A DNA stretch of 64,000 nucleotides from Candidatus Binatia bacterium. GTDB lineage: Bacteria > Desulfobacterota > Binatia > UBA9968 > JAJDTQ01. This document shows, one piece after another, positions 1,284 to 28,631 of the stretch; within the stretch, counting starts at the first letter, position 1, and every line of letters begins with the position of its first letter. The notes below the pieces were generated by a model, which was not told where the DNA came from, did no database searches, and saw nothing but the letters and a program-made list of their open reading frames with translations. Position numbers and translations under genes: made by a program. The stretch is taken from NCBI GenBank assembly GCA_963666515.2, contig OY762897.2, forward strand, positions 1,024,001-1,088,000, in the 5' to 3' direction.

Positions 1284-2243
1284 CTACTTTTTCTTCAGCA
1301 GCGGCTTGAGCCCTTCCATGATCTTGGCGTTGGCCTGCAACACCTTCCAGGTTGCGTCGGGGCCGTCGGGATTGAGGAAGAAGCCCCCCTTCAAGGCCCA
1401 CTCCTTGAAAGCGGCGTCGTCCACGATCTCCTGCATCGCCTTGCGGATGACCTGCAGCTTGTCGTCCGGCGTTCCCGGCGGCGCGGCCATGATGCGCGGG
1501 ACTCCCAGCACCGACAGTTGCGAATACCCCAGCTCGGTGGTGGTGGGGATGTCCGGCAGGTTGGGATCCTTCTTGTCCGAGATGAAGGCCAGTATGCGCA
1601 GGTCGTCCAGCACGTTGCGGACGTGCACATAACCGCCGGCTCCCGCCTCGGCGTCGCCGCGGGCCACGGCAAGCGCCGCCTTCGGGAGGTTCTTGTAGCC
1701 GGTGACGAACTTGACCGGGAACCCCAGGGTGGCGCCCAAGGCGTTGGCCTCGACCCAGGTGACGGCGCCGACTCCGGTGGTGGCGAACTTGATGGGGCGC
1801 CCGGCTTTCTTGAAGTCCGCCAGGCTCTTGATGGGCGATTTCTTGTTGACGAAGACGAACTGCTTGGCGTCCGTGAGCTTCAGGATGATCTTGAACTTGT
1901 TGTAGTCGATGGACGCCTTCTTGCCGCGAAGGATCTCGTTCGACTGGAACGAGACGAAGTGGACGAAGCCGATGGTGTATCCGTCGGGCTTGGACTTGAA
2001 CAGCACCACCGCGCCCTTGCGTCCACCCGCGCCCGGGTTGTTCTTGACCACTACGGGCACGCCGAGCTTCTTCTCCAGGTCCGCGCCCATCTTGCGCCCG
2101 AGGCGGCCGTAGGCGCCGCCGGCGCCGAACGGCACGATGACGGTGATGGGCTTGTCCGGGTAGGCGGCCGGCGTTTCGGGGGCGTTCGCCAGCACCAACG
2201 CGCCTGACACCAGGCCGATTGCCAACAGTTTCACAAAATGCAT
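1284..2243 (-). CDS. tctC: TctC/Bug family periplasmic substrate-binding protein
   Basis: Signal peptide, YPDKPITVIVPFGAGG, VVVKNNPGAGG, KPDGYT, APPGTP. Confidence 0.92.
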   Translation of the reverse strand: MHFVKLLAIGLVSGALVLANAPETPAAYPDKPITVIVPFGAGGAYGRLGRKMGADLEKKLGVPVVVKNNPGAGGRKGAVVLFKSKPDGYTIGFVHFVSFQSNEILRGKKASIDYNKFKIILKLTDAKQFVFVNKKSPIKSLADFKKAGRPIKFATTGVGAVTWVEANALGATLGFPVKFVTGYKNLPKAALAVARGDAEAGAGGYVHVRNVLDDLRILAFISDKKDPNLPDIPTTTELGYSQLSVLGVPRIMAAPPGTPDDKLQVIRKAMQEIVDDAAFKEWALKGGFFLNPDGPDATWKVLQANAKIMEGLKPLLKKK

Positions 2244-2298
2244 GTTCCCTCCTTGAAACAGGTGTTTGAGTAATTCGCCGGCGAGGATGAGCCGCGGC

Positions 2299-4086
2299 TC
2301 AGCCGGCGGGGTTACGGCATATCACGTTCAACAGGGCCTGTCGCCCATCTTCCTTGACGGCCTTGAGGCTGCGCTGCAGGGCGGACGGGAGGTCCGCCGG
2401 ATCGTCCACGCGCTCGGCGTAGGCGCCGCACGCCTGCGCGGTCAGCTCGAACTGCGGCGACGGCGACAGGTCCGTGCCCGGGAAGTTGCTGGTCTGGTGG
2501 GCGACCCCGTCCGGGTACAGCTCGCGCACGGTGCTGAGCGTCGCGTTCCAGGCCTGGTTGTTGTAGATGACGGTGAGGAACGGCACCTGGTACTTCTGCG
2601 CGGTGAAATGGCATGCGGTGGGGACGCAGAACATGTAGGAGCCATCCCCCTCGCAGGCGATGACCGTGTGGTCGGGGGCCGCCAGCTTGGCGCCGATGGC
2701 CGCGCCCATGCCCCAGCCCAGGTGGCCCGCCGGCGCCTGGTCGAAGAACGATCCGGGCCGCTCCAGCCCCAGCACGGGACCCAGGGGCGAGGTCACGGCC
2801 TCACCCATGACGATGGTCTTCTCGTCCACCACGTCGGCGATGCAGCGAGACACCCACAGGGGATGGATGGGGCGCTCGTCCTTCACCTTGTCGATGCGCG
2901 CCGCCATCTCCGCGCGCGTCTCTTCGTGCGCGGCCCTGACCCGTGCGCGCCGCTCCTCCACGGCCTTGCGTAGCGTGTCCGAGCCCTCCAGTCCCTGCCG
3001 GACCAAGCCGTTGAGCACCGGCAGCGTCACGTCGGACGAGCCGGTCATGGCGTGATCCACCGGGAATCCCCACACCGGAATGGACGAGAACAGCGGGTCC
3101 ACCTCCAGTTGCAGCACCGCGGCCTCGGGCCGGAGAATGTCCCGGGTGGCGGGCGTCCACGGCACGTCGATGTCCACCAGAAAGACCACGTCCGCCTTCT
3201 TCACGTGCCCGGGAATGTCGTGGCCGCCGTGGCATGGGTGGCTCGACGGAAAGTTCATGTACGGCGACTGCGGGTGCTGCACCACCGGTATGGCCAACAG
3301 GTCCGCCAACTCCACCAGCGGCGCCACCGCGCCGGGGGTCTTTCCCAGGTAGCGCGTCACGATCACCGGCTCGGACGCACCCATGAGGACTTCCGCGGCG
3401 CGCTCCAGGTCCCCTGCGGGCGTCTGGATCTTGCTCGGCGGCTCGAATACCTCCGCGGACACACGGGTGGTCTCCATGGACTCGTACAGCCATTCACGAG
3501 GGAGCGAGAGGTACACGGGGCCGCGGGGCTCGGCCATGGCGATCTTGAAGGCGCGAGGCACGATGGCGCCGAGCTGCTCGTTGGCGCGGTTCTCGAAGTC
3601 CCACTTGACGAACTCGCGCACGATACTGCCCTGGTCGCGGGACTCCTGGCGCCAGTGGATGTGGCGGCTCTTGCCGCCCGCCACCTCTCCCTCGGTGACC
3701 GGCGTCCTTCCCGCCACAAACAGCATCGGCACCTGGCACGCCTTGGCGTTCATGAGCCCGCCCAAGCCGTTGGCGGTGCCCGGCAGGGTGTGCACCAGCA
3801 CCACCTGCGGCTTGCCCGAGGCGCAGTAGTAGCCGTGGGCCATGGACACCGCGGCCTGCTCGTGCGGTACCACGACGATCTCCGCCCCCTTGGACTCGCT
3901 GCGGTGCATCTTGGCCAGCGCCTCCAGGATCGGGCCGTGGTCCGTCCCGGTGTTGGCGAAGATGTAGTCCACGTCGGGATTGGCGTTGAGTTGCGCCAGA
4001 AAGGCTTCGGCGCCGTTGGCCACGGTCACGTCTTCGAATTGAGGTCCCGGCATATTGAGTTCTCCGTTCGTTTCGGTGCTCATCAA
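2299..4086 (-). CDS. Thiamine pyrophosphate-dependent enzyme (acetolactate synthase/decarboxylase-like)
   Basis: PHEQAAVSMAHGY catalytic Glu motif and GDGSY...NNQ ThDP motif; start codon uncertain. Confidence 0.88.
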   Translation of the reverse strand: MMSTETNGELNMPGPQFEDVTVANGAEAFLAQLNANPDVDYIFANTGTDHGPILEALAKMHRSESKGAEIVVVPHEQAAVSMAHGYYCASGKPQVVLVHTLPGTANGLGGLMNAKACQVPMLFVAGRTPVTEGEVAGGKSRHIHWRQESRDQGSIVREFVKWDFENRANEQLGAIVPRAFKIAMAEPRGPVYLSLPREWLYESMETTRVSAEVFEPPSKIQTPAGDLERAAEVLMGASEPVIVTRYLGKTPGAVAPLVELADLLAIPVVQHPQSPYMNFPSSHPCHGGHDIPGHVKKADVVFLVDIDVPWTPATRDILRPEAAVLQLEVDPLFSSIPVWGFPVDHAMTGSSDVTLPVLNGLVRQGLEGSDTLRKAVEERRARVRAAHEETRAEMAARIDKVKDERPIHPLWVSRCIADVVDEKTIVMGEAVTSPLGPVLGLERPGSFFDQAPAGHLGWGMGAAIGAKLAAPDHTVIACEGDGSYMFCVPTACHFTAQKYQVPFLTVIYNNQAWNATLSTVRELYPDGVAHQTSNFPGTDLSPSPQFELTAQACGAYAERVDDPADLPSALQRSLKAVKEDGRQALLNVICRNPAG

Positions 4087-21488: not shown

Positions 21489-22031
21489 CGGGTTGTCACA
21501 ACGGTCCGTATCCTTGCCAAGGAGTCTTGTTGCAATGTCTTGGAAACGCTTCTCGATACAGTCGTTGGCACTCGTCGGTATTGTGGTATCAGGATGTTCT
21601 GGCTCAGGCCCTGATCCATACCGCGGCCCCGTCGTCGGGATAACTCCACCGGGCCTGTCGGTGACTTGGCGGGACGGGTGCGCCGACGGCCGTGAGATCG
21701 ATACGCGTTTCTTCGAGTTCTCGGGTGGAAGACGGACCCGGACGTGGCCATCGGACAGCTCCCGGGTGTACAGGGTCGGGACATCTTCCCGCACGGTCCG
21801 GTTGGACTGCACTCCGGGTCGCACTGTCGCCTACGGCGCACGTCCTCGGGGTATGAGCCAGGGGCAGTACTGGGGACTGGGCTTGGCTGGCGACCAATCC
21901 TGCCCGGCCGGAGTTTCCTGTTCGGTCACGTGTCCGCAAGGGAGTGAAACCTGGAGCATTGGTGCGCTTGTCTGCACACAGCCCACGAACAACCGGCCGG
22001 AGGTGCGGCGGTCGATCCCGAACACTAGAAT

Positions 22032-23891
22032 CCTTGATCGACAGGATCTTGACTCAGGAAGACAAGATATTTGAACTGGACTTCGTTCGTACATGAATAC
22101 TATCGTAGGCCATCGCGAGTTGTAACGCTCGGTAGTTTAAGCGACGAGCTTCGCCTCATCGCAAATGGCATCGAGGTTCCTGGTGATGGCGGCAAAGCGC
22201 CGATGGGTCTTGGTATTGCCGCTCACGGCGTCGGGCGCAAGATGGGCCAGGCCGGGGCGAAGGATGCGGTTGTAGACACGCGTGTAGAACATCGCCACCT
22301 TGAGGCCGTGTTCGGTCAAGTGGTAGCGGTAGGCGCCGGGGATGCGCTCGATCAGGCCGTGCAGGCGCAGGCGTCTCAGGTCGTAACTCATTCGGCCCGG
22401 GCGCATTGGACTGGGATCGAGGCCCAGGAGTGCACCGAGGTGCCCGCGCAGGTCGCGGTTGGAGAAGCCGCGGGCCGAAAGAGTGAACAAGAGCAGGGCC
22501 TGCATCAGAGCCTGCACGCGCTCATCGGCGAAGCGCAGGGCCGAGGCGCGTTGTCCGTGGAACTCCAGGCCGCGTTGATGGCGTTGGAGTTCGTCTTCAC
22601 CCAGGGCACAGTCGTGGCTGATGGTTTCTATCTGCAACAGACGACGGTTGGCTGTGAAGCCGACCTGGCACAACGCCGCCAGGTTAGACAGCCGCCGGCC
22701 CAGGGCGAAGTCATAGGTGTCGTTGACGGTGGTCTCGGTGCGCAGCGCCTGCCCTTCCTTGTGGTACTGCTTGATGCGCGAGTGCTTGTAGTCCACGTGC
22801 AAGGAAGGGGTGACGCCTGCGGTGATGACCCGGGTACGGAACCGACCGGGGGTGCGCCGGGTGACCCGGCGCTGGAAGATCAACTGCACCTGGCTGGGGC
22901 GACCGAGATCGAGGTTCTCGCGGATCACGTCCTCGAAAAAGACGCGGCCCGAGGCCGGGCGGTCGAGCACCTGGGTCAGGCTGAACTCCGCTTGCAGGAT
23001 GGAGATGTCGTAGCGCAGACCGGCGCGACGGTCCTGAGGCGTATACGGATGCGGCAGGCGATCGAACCACTTGCGCGCCAGTCTGTCGATGAAAGCGGCA
23101 TCGAAGCCTTCGCAGATCTGTTGCAGCGCCTCGGGGTCTCCGCAGCAGCGCACGCCGTTGTCCAAAGCCTCGAACGGGATGCCGCGCTCGCGCAACTGGC
23201 ACTTGGCGTACTCGTTGCCGTTGAGGCACAGCTTGCCGTTGTACGGGAAGTAGGTGCAGAACTTGATGAAGAACGGCCCCGCCTGTTTGTCCACGCAATA
23301 GAAATACACATGGTTGACCATCGCGGTAGACGAGACCACCCACGGATAGGTGACCCCGGTGTCCGGGTTCCGGCGCCGCTCGGTGCGCATCACACGGGCC
23401 TTCTCCTGCGCTATCCCGATGTACAAAACCCCTTCGGTTCCCTTGAACCGCCCCAGGTACTCCTGCGTCACCTCGTCCTTGCGCTGGCCCTTCTTGAAGT
23501 GCACCACCTCGATCTGCTCCCGCTCCGCAAAGTCCTTCACCGCCTGCACGAACTCCCGACTCTTGGGCGCCAGCGCCACCGTCGACGCAAACCGCTGGCC
23601 ATGGTGCTTGTGCAGATACCCCACTACCCCGCCCACGCTCTGCAACTGCGGCACATACAGGTTCAAGTACAGGCGATCCACCGACTCGTATTCCAGCGTC
23701 ACGTGATCGCGCAATACTTCCGCTACGGTTTGTGGTAGGCTCATGTCCGGCTCCGGTTGCTTCGGGCTTTTATGCCCATTTGACCCTTTGAGGTCCGACC
23801 TTGCAAGGTCCCATGACCAGGGATTCAATCCCTGCTACAAGCGACCGGAGCCAATCCCCTTACCCCCTCGTCGGTCTGAGGCGAAGCCTCG
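22032..23891 (-). mobile_element. Unclassified IS-like element, 1860 bp, flanked by CTAGAAT direct repeats
   Basis: CTAGAAT at 22025-22031 and 23892-23898; splits a gene; no terminal inverted repeats; hairpins at both ends; single ORF. Confidence 0.9.
22137..23744 (-). CDS. Putative transposase/replication-initiator-like protein (535 aa) with C-terminal winged helix
   Basis: Only credible ORF in the element; ATG 23744 with GGAG RBS; motifs VDRLYLN, QAEFS, IKQYHK...LRTET; wHTH-like RGFSNRDLR...SYDLRRLRLHGLIERIPG..RYHLT. Confidence 0.8.
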   Translation of the reverse strand: MSLPQTVAEVLRDHVTLEYESVDRLYLNLYVPQLQSVGGVVGYLHKHHGQRFASTVALAPKSREFVQAVKDFAEREQIEVVHFKKGQRKDEVTQEYLGRFKGTEGVLYIGIAQEKARVMRTERRRNPDTGVTYPWVVSSTAMVNHVYFYCVDKQAGPFFIKFCTYFPYNGKLCLNGNEYAKCQLRERGIPFEALDNGVRCCGDPEALQQICEGFDAAFIDRLARKWFDRLPHPYTPQDRRAGLRYDISILQAEFSLTQVLDRPASGRVFFEDVIRENLDLGRPSQVQLIFQRRVTRRTPGRFRTRVITAGVTPSLHVDYKHSRIKQYHKEGQALRTETTVNDTYDFALGRRLSNLAALCQVGFTANRRLLQIETISHDCALGEDELQRHQRGLEFHGQRASALRFADERVQALMQALLLFTLSARGFSNRDLRGHLGALLGLDPSPMRPGRMSYDLRRLRLHGLIERIPGAYRYHLTEHGLKVAMFYTRVYNRILRPGLAHLAPDAVSGNTKTHRRFAAITRNLDAICDEAKLVA

Positions 23892-25284
23892 CTAGAATAG
23901 AGGAGAGGCAGACTGCGAGCCTGTCCGGTGTCTTCGTTGACCCCGACGGCGATACGCTCAGCATCTCGGCGACATCGAGCGCGATCGAATACGTGACCGT
24001 GAGCGTGTCGGGAGGTGAGGTCAGGTTTACCGGGAGAAAGGCCGGCTCCGCGACCATAACGGTGACCGCGCGGGACCCCGGCGGCCTGAGCGCCCAGGTT
24101 CGATTTGTCGTGACCGTCAGCACAAGCACAACACCGCCCCGGAACGGCGGCACTAACCTGTTCGCGAAGCATTGTATTCGGTTTGAAAGGAAAGGACAAG
24201 TCGGGTCTCTTAAGGATCCTGACAAGTACGGTTTCCGAAACATTTGCAATCGTAAGGTTATTGTAAACTGGTGTACAGTATCCGGCGCTTCAAGGCTGTG
24301 GCACCGCTGCGTTGGTGAGGGGTATGAGGCTGCGACGACTTTGGACCCTCATGAGATAGCATGGTCTTATAATCCCATTATTGGTGAAGATGATGAACGT
24401 CGTTATACTTACGGTGTCCATTATGCGGCATGTTACTGGCATCACCATGCGGTGGCGGCCGAATTCAATGGAGTTATTCCGACCAAGTACAGGTGCCGTT
24501 GAATGCGGTCTCAACACATGCTGGATTATTCCGCTCGCTCGCCGTGGCGTGGCGACTTTGCCCACACCGGTTGATTACGACATGAAGAGGGGAAAGTGAC
24601 AGATACCCCACCCTCAGGACGACGAGAGTCGTCGGAGCTTTGCTGCTGTAGCTTTCTGGACGCTGAGCGCCGTGCCCTTTTCATTGCAGTTTCACGCTAC
24701 TGGTGGTAGGTTTCGCGAGTTTCGTGGAATTCGGAGACGCAACTTCAGCGCCGTGGTCTGTCGAGCCTGAGGTCTTGGACACCGATGACAATAGGCGCCT
24801 CCGCTCTCTTCTTACGGCGCGATGCGAAAACGCGCCGAAGTCTTCGCGGAAGAGTGAACACCAGGGCCAGGGCGAAGAGACAAGTGAGGGCCGGGACAGG
24901 CGCTGGCCCGACGCCAGTCGCTATGAAAGAGGCATGAAACTCGTTTTGAGCATCGCAGGCGTTTCCGTCGGCGTCATGGGATTGTTCGGTGATTCCCTGC
25001 AGCCGGCCCGGATACCCGACGTCCTCGTCCGCATTCTCGGAACGGGGAGTTCGGTTTCGACCTACCTGGCCGTGCTTCTGTTCCTGGCCTTTCTCCACTT
25101 CCCGAATATCCTCAGACTCGCGGCTCCAGGTAGTCGGCAGGACTCTGTAGGGGCGCTGGTCGCCACCACAGGGGTCTATCTCAACGCAGGCTCCCTGCGT
25201 GCGCTGTTGAAGGTGGAGGCGAGGCATGGTGCGGCCGGTTGTGGATGTTGAACTGTACAAGTTGAAAAGCTCCCCCGCTCTGGC

Positions 25285-25352: not shown

Positions 25353-26372
25353 ATGAGACTATTCATGGCCATGATGGCCCTGCTTTTGGCTGTCATGATA
25401 TCGAGTCCGCTCCACGGCGCGGATTTCTACAAGGGCAAGAAGATACGCCTGATCGTGTCGTCGTCTCCGGGCGGCGGTAACGATACCTACTCCCGGCTCA
25501 TCGCGCGGCACATCTCCCGGCATATTCCGGGCAATCCTTCCATCATCGTTCAGAACATGCCGGGCGCGGGCGGCGTCATGGCGGCGGATTACCTTTACCG
25601 CAAGGCCAAGCGGGACGGCACCGTGATGGAGCAGATCAACTGGGGCGTGTGGTTCCACCAGGTGGTCGGCGACAAGCGCGCCCGTTTCGACTTCAACAAG
25701 ATCAACGCCCTCGGCGTCGCCGCCATCGAGAGCGCCATCCTTTTCACCCGCAAGAGCGAGTTCCCCACCTGGGAGTCGGTGATGGCCTCCAAGAAGCTCA
25801 TCACCAGCGGCAACAGCGGGCGCCAGTCGCTGGGCCACACCATGGGCAAGGTGATGGAGAAGCTCGTCGGCAAGAAGATCTTCGACTACATCTTCGGTTA
25901 TCCCGGCGCGCGCCAGTACAGTCTCGCGTTCCGGCAGGGCGAGGTGCAGTCTTCCGGCAACACCCCGGGCTCGTTCAGGGACCAGCTAGGCGACATGTGG
26001 GACGATGGCAAGATTGCCATGCTGGTGCAGGCCCCCACGCCCGAGGGAGGCAGGACCAAGGAGTTCCCGAACACGCCGACGTTGCTGGACTTCGCCAAGA
26101 CCGCCGAGCACCGGCAACTCATCAAGGTGACCTTCGGCCTCACGCACTACGGCCGTCCGTACGCGATGCCGCCGGGCACGCCCAAGGACCGTGTCGAGCT
26201 CATGCGCAAGGCCTTCACCGCCACCATGAACGACCCCAAGTTCCTGGCGGAGGCCAAGCGGCTCAAGCGCGACATCATCCCGTCCACGGGCGCCCAGCTC
26301 CAGCAGCTCTGGAAGGACGTCCTCAGCGCGCCACCCGAGAACGTGGCCATCATCAAGGACATCTGGCTGTAG
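25353..26372 (+). CDS. tctC: TctC/Bug family substrate-binding protein (copy 1)
   Basis: Signal peptide, FYKGKKIRLIVSSSPGGGND, VQNMPGAGG, GRPYAMPPGTP. Confidence 0.92.
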   Translation: MRLFMAMMALLLAVMISSPLHGADFYKGKKIRLIVSSSPGGGNDTYSRLIARHISRHIPGNPSIIVQNMPGAGGVMAADYLYRKAKRDGTVMEQINWGVWFHQVVGDKRARFDFNKINALGVAAIESAILFTRKSEFPTWESVMASKKLITSGNSGRQSLGHTMGKVMEKLVGKKIFDYIFGYPGARQYSLAFRQGEVQSSGNTPGSFRDQLGDMWDDGKIAMLVQAPTPEGGRTKEFPNTPTLLDFAKTAEHRQLIKVTFGLTHYGRPYAMPPGTPKDRVELMRKAFTATMNDPKFLAEAKRLKRDIIPSTGAQLQQLWKDVLSAPPENVAIIKDIWL

Positions 26373-26410
26373 GGTATCGACACGCTGTTGAGCGGTACTT
26401 ACTGTAAGGC

Positions 26411-26447
26411 GGCGCCGGGAGTGAAGGCTCCCGGCGCCTCAAAAAAA
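26411..26447. terminator. GC-rich stem-loop between tctC copies 1 and 2
   Basis: GGCGCCGGGAG/CTCCCGGCGCC followed by A7; no U-tract on the + strand. Confidence 0.55.
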
Positions 26448-26461
26448 CCAGGGAGGTAACA

Positions 26462-27502
26462 ATGAAGGCAGTATTGGGTCTCGCGACGCTCGCGTTGTTC
26501 CTTTTCGGAGTTGGAAACGCGGCGGCGGCGGACTTCTACAAGGGCAAGAAGATCCGGCTGATCGTTTCGTCTTCGCCCGGCGGCGGCAACGACACCTACT
26601 CGCGGCTGTTGGCGCGTCACATCGGCCGGCACATACCGGGAAACCCCTCCATCATCGTGCAGAACATGCCGGGAGCCGGCGGCGTCCGCGCGGCCAGCTA
26701 CCTTTACAACAAGGCGAAGCGCGACGGCACCGTCATGGAGCAGATCAACTGGGGCGTGTGGAACTGGCAGGTGGTGGGTGACAAGGCTCGTGGCAGCCAG
26801 TTCGACTTCAACAAGATGCAGGCCATCGGCGTCATCATCATCGAGAACGGTCTGATCTACAGCCGCAAGGACCGCTTCAAATCGCTGGACGACATCAAGA
26901 AGTCGGGCAAGCTGGCCAGGGTGGGCATCAGCGGCAACCAGTCCAGCGGCTTCGTGATCGGCAACATCCTCGAGAAGCTGCGCGGCGAGACGCTGTTCGA
27001 GTACGTCTTCGGCTATCCCGGCGCGCGCCAGTACAGCCTCGCGTTCCGGCAGGGCGAGGTGGACGTCTCGGGCAACGTGACTTCCTCGTTCATGGATCAG
27101 CTCGGGGACATGTGGAAGGCGGGGGACATCATCATGCTCGCCCAGACCGGTACGGTGAAGGGAGAGAAGGCCCCGGAGTTCCCGAACGCTCCGTTGCTCG
27201 AGGACTTGGCCAAGACCGAGAAGCAGAAGAACCTGGTGCGGGCGACTTTCCTGCTTTCTCGCTACGGGCGGCCGTACGCCTTCCCCCCGGGAGTTCCCGC
27301 GGACCGCGTCGCGCTCGTGCGCAAGGCGTTTGACGCCACCATGAAGGACCCGAAGTTCATCGCGGAAGGCAAGAAGCTCGGCCGCGACGTCGACCCCACC
27401 AGCGGTGCGGACCTGCAAAAGATGTGGAAGGATTCGCTGGGCGCCTCGCCGGAGGACAAGGCCATCGTGTCGCAGATCTTCAACCCCAAGGGCAAGAAGT
27501 AG
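26462..27502 (+). CDS. tctC: TctC/Bug family substrate-binding protein (copy 2)
   Basis: Same motifs as copy 1; RBS GGAGG. Confidence 0.92.
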   Translation: MKAVLGLATLALFLFGVGNAAAADFYKGKKIRLIVSSSPGGGNDTYSRLLARHIGRHIPGNPSIIVQNMPGAGGVRAASYLYNKAKRDGTVMEQINWGVWNWQVVGDKARGSQFDFNKMQAIGVIIIENGLIYSRKDRFKSLDDIKKSGKLARVGISGNQSSGFVIGNILEKLRGETLFEYVFGYPGARQYSLAFRQGEVDVSGNVTSSFMDQLGDMWKAGDIIMLAQTGTVKGEKAPEFPNAPLLEDLAKTEKQKNLVRATFLLSRYGRPYAFPPGVPADRVALVRKAFDATMKDPKFIAEGKKLGRDVDPTSGADLQKMWKDSLGASPEDKAIVSQIFNPKGKK

Positions 27503-27534
27503 CACCTGTCAGGACTGCCGGGTGCAGTAAATCG

Positions 27535-27572
27535 GGGTGCCGGGGGCCGAGTGTCCCCGGCACCCTTCGTTT
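27535..27572 (+). terminator. Stem-loop/weak terminator between tctC copies 2 and 3
   Basis: GGGTGCCGGGG/CCCCGGCACCC followed by TTCGTTT. Confidence 0.6.
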
Positions 27573-27590
27573 GAAAGCCGGGAGGTGACC

Positions 27591-28631
27591 ATGAAGGCTG
27601 TACTGAGTCTCGTAATGCTCGCGCTGTTCCTGTTCGGCGCGGGCCCGGCAGGGGCGGCGGACTTCTACAAGGGCAAGAAGATCCGGCTGATCGTCTCGTC
27701 TTCGCCCGGCGGCGGCAACGACACCTACTCGCGGCTGCTGGCGCGTCATCTTGGCAGAAACATTCCGGGAAACCCTTCCATCATCGTGCAGAACATGCCG
27801 GGGGCCGGCGGCGTGCGCGCGGCCAGCTACCTCTACAACAAGGCCAGGCGCGACGGCACGGTCATGGAGCAGATCAACTGGGGGGTGTGGAACTGGCAGG
27901 TGGTGGGCGACAAGAAGCGCGGCGGCCAGTTCGACTTCAACAAGATGAACGCCATCGGCGTCATCGTCATCGAGAATGGCCTCTTCTACACCCGGAAGGA
28001 CCGCTTCAAGTCGCTGGACGAGATCAAGCAGTCGGGCAAGCTGGCCCGGGTCGGCATCAGCGGCAACCAATCCGGCGGCTTCGTCATGGGCAACATCCTG
28101 GAGAAGCTGCGCGGCGAGAAGCTGTTCGAGTATGTCTTCGGCTATCCGGGGGCGCGCCAGTACAGTCTCGCGCTCAGGCAGGGCGAGGTGGACGCCTCCG
28201 GCAACGTGACCTCGTCGTTTCTGGATCAGCTCGGCGACATGTGGCACGAAGGGAAGCTCGTCATGCTCGCCCAGACCGGCACGGTGGAGGGCAAGAAGGC
28301 TCCCGAGTTCCCGGACGCTCCGTTGCTGGAGGACATGGCCAAGACCGAGAAACAGAAGAACCTCGTAAAGGCCACCTTCCTGCTCTCGCGCTACGGGCGT
28401 CCCTACTCCATGCCGCCGGGAGTGCCGGCGGAGCGCGTCGCGCTGGTGCGCAAGGCCTTCGACGCGACCATGAAGGACCCCAAGTTCCTGGCGGAGGCCA
28501 AGAAGCTCAAGCGTCCGGTCAACCCCACGAAGGGCGCGGACCTCCAGAGGATGTGGAAGGATTCGATCGCCGCCTCACCGGAAGACAAGGCCATCGTGTC
28601 GCAGATATTCAACCCCAAGGGCGGGAAGTAG
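27591..28631 (+). CDS. tctC: TctC/Bug family substrate-binding protein (copy 3)
   Basis: ATG 27591 with GGAGG RBS; close paralog of copy 2. Confidence 0.92.
   Translation: MKAVLSLVMLALFLFGAGPAGAADFYKGKKIRLIVSSSPGGGNDTYSRLLARHLGRNIPGNPSIIVQNMPGAGGVRAASYLYNKARRDGTVMEQINWGVWNWQVVGDKKRGGQFDFNKMNAIGVIVIENGLFYTRKDRFKSLDEIKQSGKLARVGISGNQSGGFVMGNILEKLRGEKLFEYVFGYPGARQYSLALRQGEVDASGNVTSSFLDQLGDMWHEGKLVMLAQTGTVEGKKAPEFPDAPLLEDMAKTEKQKNLVKATFLLSRYGRPYSMPPGVPAERVALVRKAFDATMKDPKFLAEAKKLKRPVNPTKGADLQRMWKDSIAASPEDKAIVSQIFNPKGGK

Follow-up and report, generated by a model that had tools for sequence, protein, structure and literature searches.

What is the function of the densely folded leader that precedes the only gene of a small mobile element in the genome of a Candidatus Binatia bacterium, and does this leader act as RNA or as DNA? 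The element occupies positions 22030-23891, on the minus strand, of the 64,000-nucleotide stretch of contig OY762897.2 analysed here (the window); it is 1,862 bp long, carries a single gene for a presumed transposase and has no long terminal inverted repeats. The original prediction, made from the letters of the window, offered three readings of its 5' end, i.e. a single-stranded DNA (ssDNA) recognition origin, a translational lock against read-through, or an element-encoded structured RNA analogous to the IS110 bridge RNA or omegaRNA. Our results indicate that the outer stem of the leader contains the ribosome binding site (RBS) of the gene, and that this arrangement is conserved across a large family of elements. 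On balance, we lean towards a translational lock on the transposase messenger RNA (mRNA), like that of the left end of IS200, standing beside a terminal hairpin that serves end recognition at the DNA level.

Structure of the leader

The structured region is the first 150 nt of the element in gene sense, i.e. on the minus strand. The multibranch fold itself (23749-23852, minus strand), which was identified by folding, a repeat search and a covariance model, consists of a closing stem, P1, and four enclosed hairpins. P1 pairs 23749-62 with 23839-52 (14 nt, 93% complementary in the repeat search), and the hairpins are GGGC/GCCC at 23764-77, GACC/GGTC at 23782-95, the palindrome GACCTTGCAAGGTC at 23797-810 and CAGGGATT-C-AATCCCTG at 23818-34. 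The Shine-Dalgarno (SD) sequence GGAG (complement of 23751-23754, minus strand) stands 6 nt ahead of the ATG; it is part of the 3' strand of P1 and is paired in the fold. The closing stem, the four hairpins and the terminal hairpin were thus all found where they had been predicted, and both sequence and fold confirmed that the RBS sits within the closing stem. A short spacer (23853-23866, minus strand) separates P1 from the conserved motif at the end of the element; in homologues this spacer is longer and variable.

The fold is more stable than expected from base composition on either strand. The minus-strand RNA reached -65.7 kcal/mol vs -53.5 +/- 3.9 for shuffled sequences (z = -3.09), the plus-strand DNA gave z = -3.73, and in neither case did any of 200 shuffles fold as well; therefore the fold exceeds chance even within the single window sequence. 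Minimum-energy folding recovered P1 and the four hairpins for RNA and DNA alike. That the plus-strand DNA is as unusual as the RNA favours an alternative in which the multibranch fold acts as DNA, i.e. as a single-stranded or cruciform end whose hairpins are recognised by the protein of the element, in the way of the subterminal hairpins at IS200/IS605 ends or of hairpin origins in rolling-circle replicons. Each stem of one strand also forms on the other, which in turn favours a second alternative, namely that the conserved structure is an art200-like antisense RNA that lies opposite the leader and pairs with it to block translation. A search of 21900-24000 against Rfam at E <= 1 returned two chance-level matches in the coding region and none in the leader.

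Conservation of the leader fold

Homologous elements were compared at 80 kept loci, which encode relatives of 55-74% identity and derive from Gamma-, Beta- and Alphaproteobacteria, Acidobacteriota, Actinomycetes, Verrucomicrobiota, Myxococcota, Gemmatimonadaceae, Anaerolineae, Armatimonadetes and others. We used the 74 loci at which the match starts within the first six query residues, dropped 9 that had no end motif within 300 nt and 8 whose motif lay outside 130-205 nt from the ATG, and obtained a leader set of 57 loci plus the window, comprising 50 distinct sequences. When each was folded separately to its minimum energy, the same plan appeared across sequence-divergent subgroups, i.e. a long-range stem bearing the GGAG around a group of hairpins, generally three, and four in the window and its nearest relatives. 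A fixed criterion was then applied to these folds, namely that at least three of the four GGAG bases pair at least 50 nt upstream and that at least three hairpins are enclosed. This was the case in 41 of the 50 leaders, vs 37 of 500 controls in which the whole leader except the last 23 nt had been shuffled; the leaders that failed were L018, L020, L023, L029, L045, L053, L064, L066 and L074. In every subgroup read, the GGAG lies 5-9 nt before the ATG and within the 3' strand of P1.

Aligned with MAFFT alone, the 50 leaders gave too poor a result to be useful (RNAalifold predicted 0 pairs from it), and a covariance model, R1, was therefore built from 22 sequences of one proteobacterial subgroup. 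R1 matches the window at 23742-23861 (minus strand) in the sense orientation, with 31 bits and E = 3e-5, and it matches the sense strand of all 35 chosen loci at E <= 0.004, including actinobacterial, verrucomicrobial and other members. These 35 were taken from 81 sources by omitting duplicates and loci without a match at E <= 0.004, a choice that took out most of the acidobacterial subgroup. In the alignment of the 35 loci fitted to the model, 92.5% of the 1,035 cells are paired and 24 of the 31 pairs change on both sides; none of 500 shuffles reached any of the five measures used, and sliding the partners by 1-3 columns reduced pairing to 21-48%. The comparison of homologous 5' ends for covariation, by which the original prediction was to be judged, thus came out in favour of a conserved structure, and together with the pairing of the GGAG it makes the lock the best supported of the three functions that had been suggested.

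The motif occurs with the element only. In its own genome R1 found 9 of 9 copies and zero orphan matches, and in five other genomes it matched only at elements or at truncated relics, of which L127 is one; no non-autonomous derivatives were found by R1 in these six genomes. Weak antisense matches (E = 0.005-0.14) were seen within the coding region of five loci, at 2760-2860 (minus strand) in L038, L030, L032 and L024 and at 2367-2467 (minus strand) in L091.

The leader region is non-coding, since stems change in length by paired steps of 2 nt between subgroups and thereby shift the upstream reading frame. A start codon recurs at one position: in 38 leaders the last hairpin has an AUG or GUG at its base, 35-39 nt ahead of the main AUG. 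This codon is in frame with the main open reading frame (ORF) in 23, opens a frame whose UGA overlaps the main AUG in 11, and lies in the third frame in 4. The window belongs to the 11, with a possible upstream ORF of 12 codons (23741-23779, minus strand) that begins with the AUG at the last-hairpin base and ends in the overlap AUGA; this ORF is not universal in the family. The 38 sequences are related, so that the tally is no more than a hint. Judged from the sequences, the frame at the last-hairpin base may serve to open the lock by translational coupling.

Molecule and strand in which the fold acts

Three results point to RNA of the gene sense. The last hairpin retains a U-G pair at its base, in 25 of 35 sequences of the R1 alignment (columns 131-164) and in 16 of 16 of the alignment of a second subgroup, group B (columns 68-84). 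It favours gene-sense RNA because an antisense RNA would have an A-C mismatch there; it also speaks against DNA, in which one strand would have a mismatch at this place and the other a weak T-G pair. In 37 of the 50 leaders, the sense fold has a lower energy than the antisense fold. The tie between P1 and the RBS in every subgroup likewise favours gene-sense RNA; a site that acted as DNA would have no reason to place its outer stem on the RBS each time.

Several results weigh against reading the leader as a sense RNA that locks translation. Covariation within subgroups is thin: RNAalifold predicted 24 pairs for group A, 4 of them with two-sided change, and 29 pairs for group B (94.1% paired), 3 with two-sided change, where the covariation score was reached by 39 of 500 shuffles. 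The sequences within a subgroup are too alike to covary much, and the strong covariation appears when different subgroups are set against each other in the model-fitted alignment. Of the acidobacterial subgroup, R1 recovers next to nothing (one match, E = 0.058); there, conservation of the fold rests on individual folds and the group B alignment. Wobble counts on the model-fitted alignment (G-U 47 vs A-C 41) favour neither strand, and this lack of preference suits DNA. For the window, and for L012 and L087 as its nearest relatives, the antisense strand folds as stably as the sense strand or more so; the same is true of L042, L048 and L064, and these cases favour the antisense RNA. A consensus scan of both strands of 21950-23950 found no sigma-70 promoter, a result that also counts against the antisense RNA. 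Finally, one stem suffices to hide an RBS, and a lock alone does not account for the conservation of the inner hairpins or for the constant CGA loop that one of them carries. This surplus of structure keeps alive both the DNA site and a third alternative, in which the leader is a functional RNA, either a cofactor or guide bound by the transposase in the manner of a bridge RNA or omega RNA, or a processed small RNA.

The antisense RNA has a precedent in IS200, which has such an RNA (PMC4513863). Nevertheless, the A-C mismatches that it would contain, the greater stability of the sense fold in most leaders and the result of the promoter scan leave it, in our opinion, improbable. As a separate observation made by eye, one subgroup has a -10-like TAAGGT just upstream, next to P1.

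Terminal hairpin and element ends

The 5' tip of the element is a conserved motif of 25 nt, CGAGGC-TTC-GCCTCAGACCGACGAG (23867-23891, minus strand). It includes the mini-hairpin GAGGC-GAA-GCCTC (23878-90), which on the plus strand is followed by one G and then by CTAG (23892-95). Homologues read in gene sense show the same order, i.e. CTAA or more rarely CTAG, the motif CGAGGC-NNN-GCCTCAGACCGACGAG, a variable spacer, the multibranch fold, and the ATG with its ORF. Inspection of 75 ends, 9 of which had no end motif within 300 nt, left 53 distinct versions. The 5-bp tip stem is complementary in all 53, as GAGGC/GCCTC in 47, GGGGC/GCCCC in 4 and GGGGT/ACCCC in 2; these three forms amount to double changes at two stem positions. 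The AGACCGACGAG that follows the hairpin is nearly constant.

The tip loop is more variable, reading in gene sense TCC in 21 versions, TTC in 11, CCT in 8, TCT in 5, TGC in 3, TAC and CAT in 2 each and TTT in 1. GNA loops closed by C-G give unusually stable DNA mini-hairpins of the d(GCGNAGC) type. Read on the strand opposite the gene, 37 of the 53 loops belong to this class (GGA 21, GAA 11, GCA 3, GTA 2) and 16 lie outside it (AGG 8, AGA 5, ATG 2, AAA 1). The link to d(GCGAAGC) that had been drawn for the window hairpin therefore holds only in part, the GAA loop itself being present in 11 of the 53. For the suggested ssDNA recognition origin, the conserved motif makes such a role plausible at the terminal mini-hairpin; the multibranch fold, with its outer stem coupled to the RBS, is a less likely candidate.

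Compensatory change in a hairpin that lies next to the leader is nonetheless a point for the alternative in which the leader, too, acts as DNA. So is the arrangement in a large acidobacterial subgroup, in which a perfect inverted copy of the first 24 nt, the flanking CTAA included, lies a few tens of bases inward. This copy is found at the 5' ends of L051, L054, L059-L063, L066-L069, L073, L074, L076, L078 and L084, and also of L046 and L085; it can pair with the tip as a long hairpin, the two arms of which change together between elements.

The 3' end of the element is built differently. The non-coding stretch behind the gene (22030-22136, minus strand) contains a hairpin, ATCCT/AGGAT (22031-35 with 22044-48), that adjoins the tip, and the region as a whole folds no better than shuffles in the window (z = -0.6). 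In homologues the order at this end is AAACTTGACTCAA, 15-20 variable nt, TCAGTCAAGGAAT and CTAG. The two element tips differ, and the repeat search of the window found no terminal inverted repeat. By eye, and with no statistics attached, GCCTCAGACCGACGAGG after the 5' hairpin resembles the reverse complement of the window 3' end (CCTTGATCGACAGG); this likeness would constitute an imperfect subterminal inverted repeat with insertions and deletions.

Copies, flanks and target site

The element is mobile and CTAG-flanked. A search of its own genome with 21900-24000 found 9 copies, all of 100% identity, each with CTAG on either side; the sequence outside these CTAGs is unrelated between copies. 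The common part thus ends exactly at the flanking CTAGs (22026-22029 next to the 3' end and 23892-23895 next to the 5' end in the window), which defines 22030-23891 as the element proper. In four public sequencing runs the contig depth over the element exceeds that over the flanks some 11- to 14-fold (e.g. 194 vs 16.9 and 378.5 vs 28.1). In every homologous locus read, CTAG is present at the element side of the 3' end, and the tetranucleotide before the 5' end is CTAA in 44, CTAG in 2, CCAG in 5 and TTAG in 1 of the 53 distinct ends, one end being cut off by its contig.

Interrupted genes give some information on the insertion itself. At copy L004, the two flanking open frames, one of which contains a Sacsin domain, are colinear in a single frame with one large gene of a relative. 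The frames of the interrupted genes at L004, L008, L001 and L018 are restored when exactly one tetranucleotide stays, a result that is compatible with insertion without duplication and, equally, with a duplication inside CTAG. An apparent preference for zero bases at L020 and L040 was discarded as an artefact, since removal of CTAG there also removes an in-frame stop. No empty site was found among 30 relatives probed with the left flank of the window copy; the flank of L079 led to a relative that lacks a larger segment and offers no clean empty site, the plasmid collection gave only occupied sites for L121, and no contig of the four public runs bridges the element. No true empty site was thus found, and the element may duplicate bases inside CTAG, or it may, in the style of IS608, have its target on one side and its own CTAG on the other.

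Orientation relative to replication bears on whether a single strand is mobilised. Six copies are co-directional and three head-on (a weak sample of n=9; origin at ~3.70 Mb and terminus at ~1.45 Mb by GC skew), which is no orientation bias, whereas single-strand transposition of the IS608 type would predict one; this counts against the DNA alternative. Partial duplications of the 3' end count in its favour: in L077 the 3' end unit is tandemly duplicated, and in L032 the 3' part of the gene is duplicated, with the first copy ending just before CTAG. These two may be traces of aberrant termination or of nested events. Weighing these points together with the conserved U-G pair and the position of P1 on the RBS, we regard a DNA role of the multibranch fold as rather unlikely.

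Further irregular copies were observed. In a relic of a related copy (L010/L011, G000:C1:2645461-2645643; 90-92% identical), 327 nt are missing between positions 23388 and 23716 of the window, and its joint recurs in contigs of all four public runs. CCAG replaces CTAA before the end motif in L017, L034, L048, L064 and L083, and some of these also agree in the sequence beyond it. A 7-nt direct repeat, TGCGGTG, borders the unit 'AACACCAG + element + CTAG' in L017, which is at odds with insertion into CTAG.

The encoded protein

The presumed transposase gene (22137-23744, minus strand; ATG 23744-23742, stop 22137-22139 in the ORF list) encodes 535 aa. The protein had no match in Pfam (E <= 0.01), NCBIfam, PHROG or the sequences of the Protein Data Bank (PDB). 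At E <= 10, a Pfam search across 26 family members returned only weak winged-helix families around residues 427-472, and a profile searched against the PDB gave only weak MarR-like matches at residues 446-520. Yet the family is large. All 8,000 candidates scored in one search lay at E <= 0.001, so that it has at least 8,000 members, and when the search was made exhaustive, 10,355 cluster representatives (50% identity) matched at E <= 0.001, 1,214 of them at E <= 1e-30. The contigs that carry family proteins are mostly ~1.8-2 kb long, as expected since repeats break assemblies. A relative is encoded by 130 of the 215 candidate stretches from species-representative genomes, and 28 records of a plasmid collection contain a family protein, labelled 'hypothetical protein' or unannotated, with one distant match named ArsR family.

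In an AlphaFold2 model (pLDDT 85.2, pTM 0.74), very long beta strands form two sets, after which a winged helix makes up the C-terminus; a second model, of residues 1-350, had a pLDDT of 61.9 and was not used. Foldseek found no match in the PDB at E <= 0.001. The weak matches that could be interpreted were the Rep_trans initiator 4cij (probability up to 0.99, E = 2.2e-3, TM 0.36), archaeal TATA-binding protein (TBP) and, at the C-terminus, MarR-type regulators; in a fold search against viral models the named matches were TBP-like proteins. A search of the Atlas returned unnamed clusters only, and residues 1-400 searched against named clusters gave no usable match. The likeness to a rolling-circle initiator and to TBP-like saddles, weak as it is, again favours a leader that acts as DNA; against this, the Pfam model Rep_trans (PF02486) matched neither the protein nor anything in the whole genome, while the Bacillus subtilis control genome was matched.

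Since the protein belongs to no known family, it has room for an RNA partner, and the surplus of conserved structure with its constant loop fits the third alternative, the functional RNA. A processed 5' tnpA RNA is reported for IS200 (10.1101/2024.06.26.600842). However, the target is merely CTAG, which requires no guide, and the unpaired junction bases of the leader vary between subgroups. The proposal that leader loops match the flanks of target or donor found no support: among 41 distinct elements, of which 39 yielded a usable leader, the longest complementarity of the leader to the joined 3'-CTAG-5' ends, on both strands, was 5-9 nt and was reached by 16 to 200 of 200 shuffles, with the sole exception of L055 (3 of 200), which is without counterpart elsewhere. 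The protein has no IS110, TnpB or IscB domains and the leader no counterpart in Rfam, so that the analogy with the IS110 bridge RNA or omegaRNA lacks its defining features. We give a protein-bound or processed RNA only a slim chance.

Taken more broadly, the locus raises the tentative idea of a new class of prokaryotic transposon, in which a protein with a TBP/Rep_trans-like beta-saddle and a winged helix, lacking known transposase domains, would cut beside CTAG at hairpin-bearing ends, with the multibranch leader, beyond any lock, as a cis-acting component (protein-bound RNA or folded ssDNA) required for the reaction or for its control. We consider this possible, if unlikely.

Two observations concern the family at large. 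In all four public runs, 22743-22853 has a summed contig depth 3 to 6 times that of the rest of the element, probably because other family members in the same samples share this stretch, in which the best conserved motif of the protein (around RIKQYHKEGQALRTETT) is encoded. Locus L104 (G032:C148; ORF 1432-2949, minus strand) is a distant paralogue of 505 aa and 27% identity, with different ends and a different 5' region; upstream it still has CAACGAGGTGTAT, which resembles the segment after the terminal hairpin of the family.

Proposed mechanism

We propose that the element controls its transposase by a lock on translation. In the transposase mRNA, the GC-rich, 14-bp P1 of the leader (23749-23852) would pair the GGAG with an anti-SD sequence ~90 nt upstream, and the three or four hairpins between the P1 strands would form a compact junction that keeps P1 shut. 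The default state would be 'no translation', the transposase would be scarce, and transcripts entering from neighbouring genes would be unable to switch the element on; the protection against read-through named in the original prediction is thus a consequence expected of the model, whose core is the better supported lock. Some opener seems to be needed because P1 is so stable. One candidate is a transcript start inside or beyond the anti-SD strand, to which the -10-like TAAGGT of one subgroup may belong. Alternatively, ribosomes might start at the AUG or GUG of the last hairpin and melt P1 as they proceed towards the main AUG. The observations establish the structure, its conservation, its link to the RBS, and a mobile element with CTAG flanks; action as RNA, repression of translation and binding of the tip by the protein are inferred. 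The tip (23867-23891), i.e. the 5-bp mini-hairpin with AGACCGACGAG, would most likely be the DNA site that the transposase recognises, cutting beside CTAG.

Neighbouring genes

Both genes flanking the element in the window run into it. The right-hand ORF (23801-24502, plus strand) contains the bacterial Ig-like domains Big_9 and Big_2, and its open frame starts within the element; the left-hand ORF (21493-22074, plus strand) is lipoprotein-like. Further along, at 25353-28631 (plus strand), three paralogous ORFs of ~340-365 aa stand in tandem, with starts that resemble signal peptides and near-identical N-terminal motifs.

Significance

The most likely function of the leader is not new, as RBS-hiding leaders are already known as a way for insertion sequences to stay quiet. 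What appears to be undescribed is, in the first place, the family of elements, and with it this RNA motif and the conserved hairpin at the tip; full-text searches of the literature, with supplementary files, subscription-only papers and ISfinder outside their scope, returned no description of the element or its leader. This is a 1.9-kb single-gene family of more than 10,000 protein clusters in many phyla, annotated throughout as 'hypothetical protein'. Its recognition would improve the annotation of many genomes, in which the element splits genes and breaks assemblies, and would open a possibly new transposition chemistry to experiment. The covariance model of the leader marks the 5' end and the orientation of the element, and the stems offer clear targets for mutation.

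Relation to known insertion sequences

Known systems share single features with the element. IS630/Tc1-mariner elements use a CTAG target with duplication of TA. Insertion into CTAG is common to both, and the CTA-A...CTAG flanks fit a 2- or 3-bp duplication inside CTAG; the protein described here, however, matches no DDE family, and the element has no terminal inverted repeats. Rolling-circle initiators of the pT181-type Rep_trans family use hairpin origins, and a hairpin beside the cleavage point, together with the best interpretable (weak) fold match of the protein, recalls them. They differ in that the protein has no match to their sequence model, and in that the element is a chromosomal multicopy insertion and not a replicon.

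Other systems resemble the element in the control of the transposase. In the fold-back inhibition of IS10 and IS50, transcripts from outside pair the RBS, while transcripts from the element's own promoter lack the pairing sequence. We propose the same logic here, with a far larger structure. A structured, conserved, non-coding 5' stretch in a single-gene element without clear terminal inverted repeats is also characteristic of IS110/IS1111, whose proteins have a DEDD (RuvC-like) domain and Transposase_20, both absent here, where moreover the target has only 4 bp. For ISPpu9, an IS110-family element with two small RNAs, transposase expression is reported to be controlled by secondary structure in the 5' untranslated region (5'-UTR) of the mRNA (PMC8450116), a form of control that we propose for the present element as well.

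The closest documented case is the left end of IS200. This end combines a terminal hairpin with a 5'-UTR stem-loop that sequesters the SD, blocks 30S binding and lowers transposition (PMC4513863). The order is the same here, i.e. a hairpin near the tip and then a leader structure that pairs the SD of a single transposase gene. The differences are that the IS200 structure is a single stem-loop, in contrast to a junction of three to four hairpins inside a long-range stem, and that the IS200 tip hairpin is a terminator, whereas here no U-run follows the hairpin on either strand. The proteins are also distinct, the one described here matching neither the Y1 HUH TnpA of IS200/IS605 nor TnpB in Pfam and NCBIfam. 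Even so, the feature that marks the SD-sequestering transposase leaders of the IS200 and IS10 kind, an SD paired within a stable and conserved structure, is present in this element.

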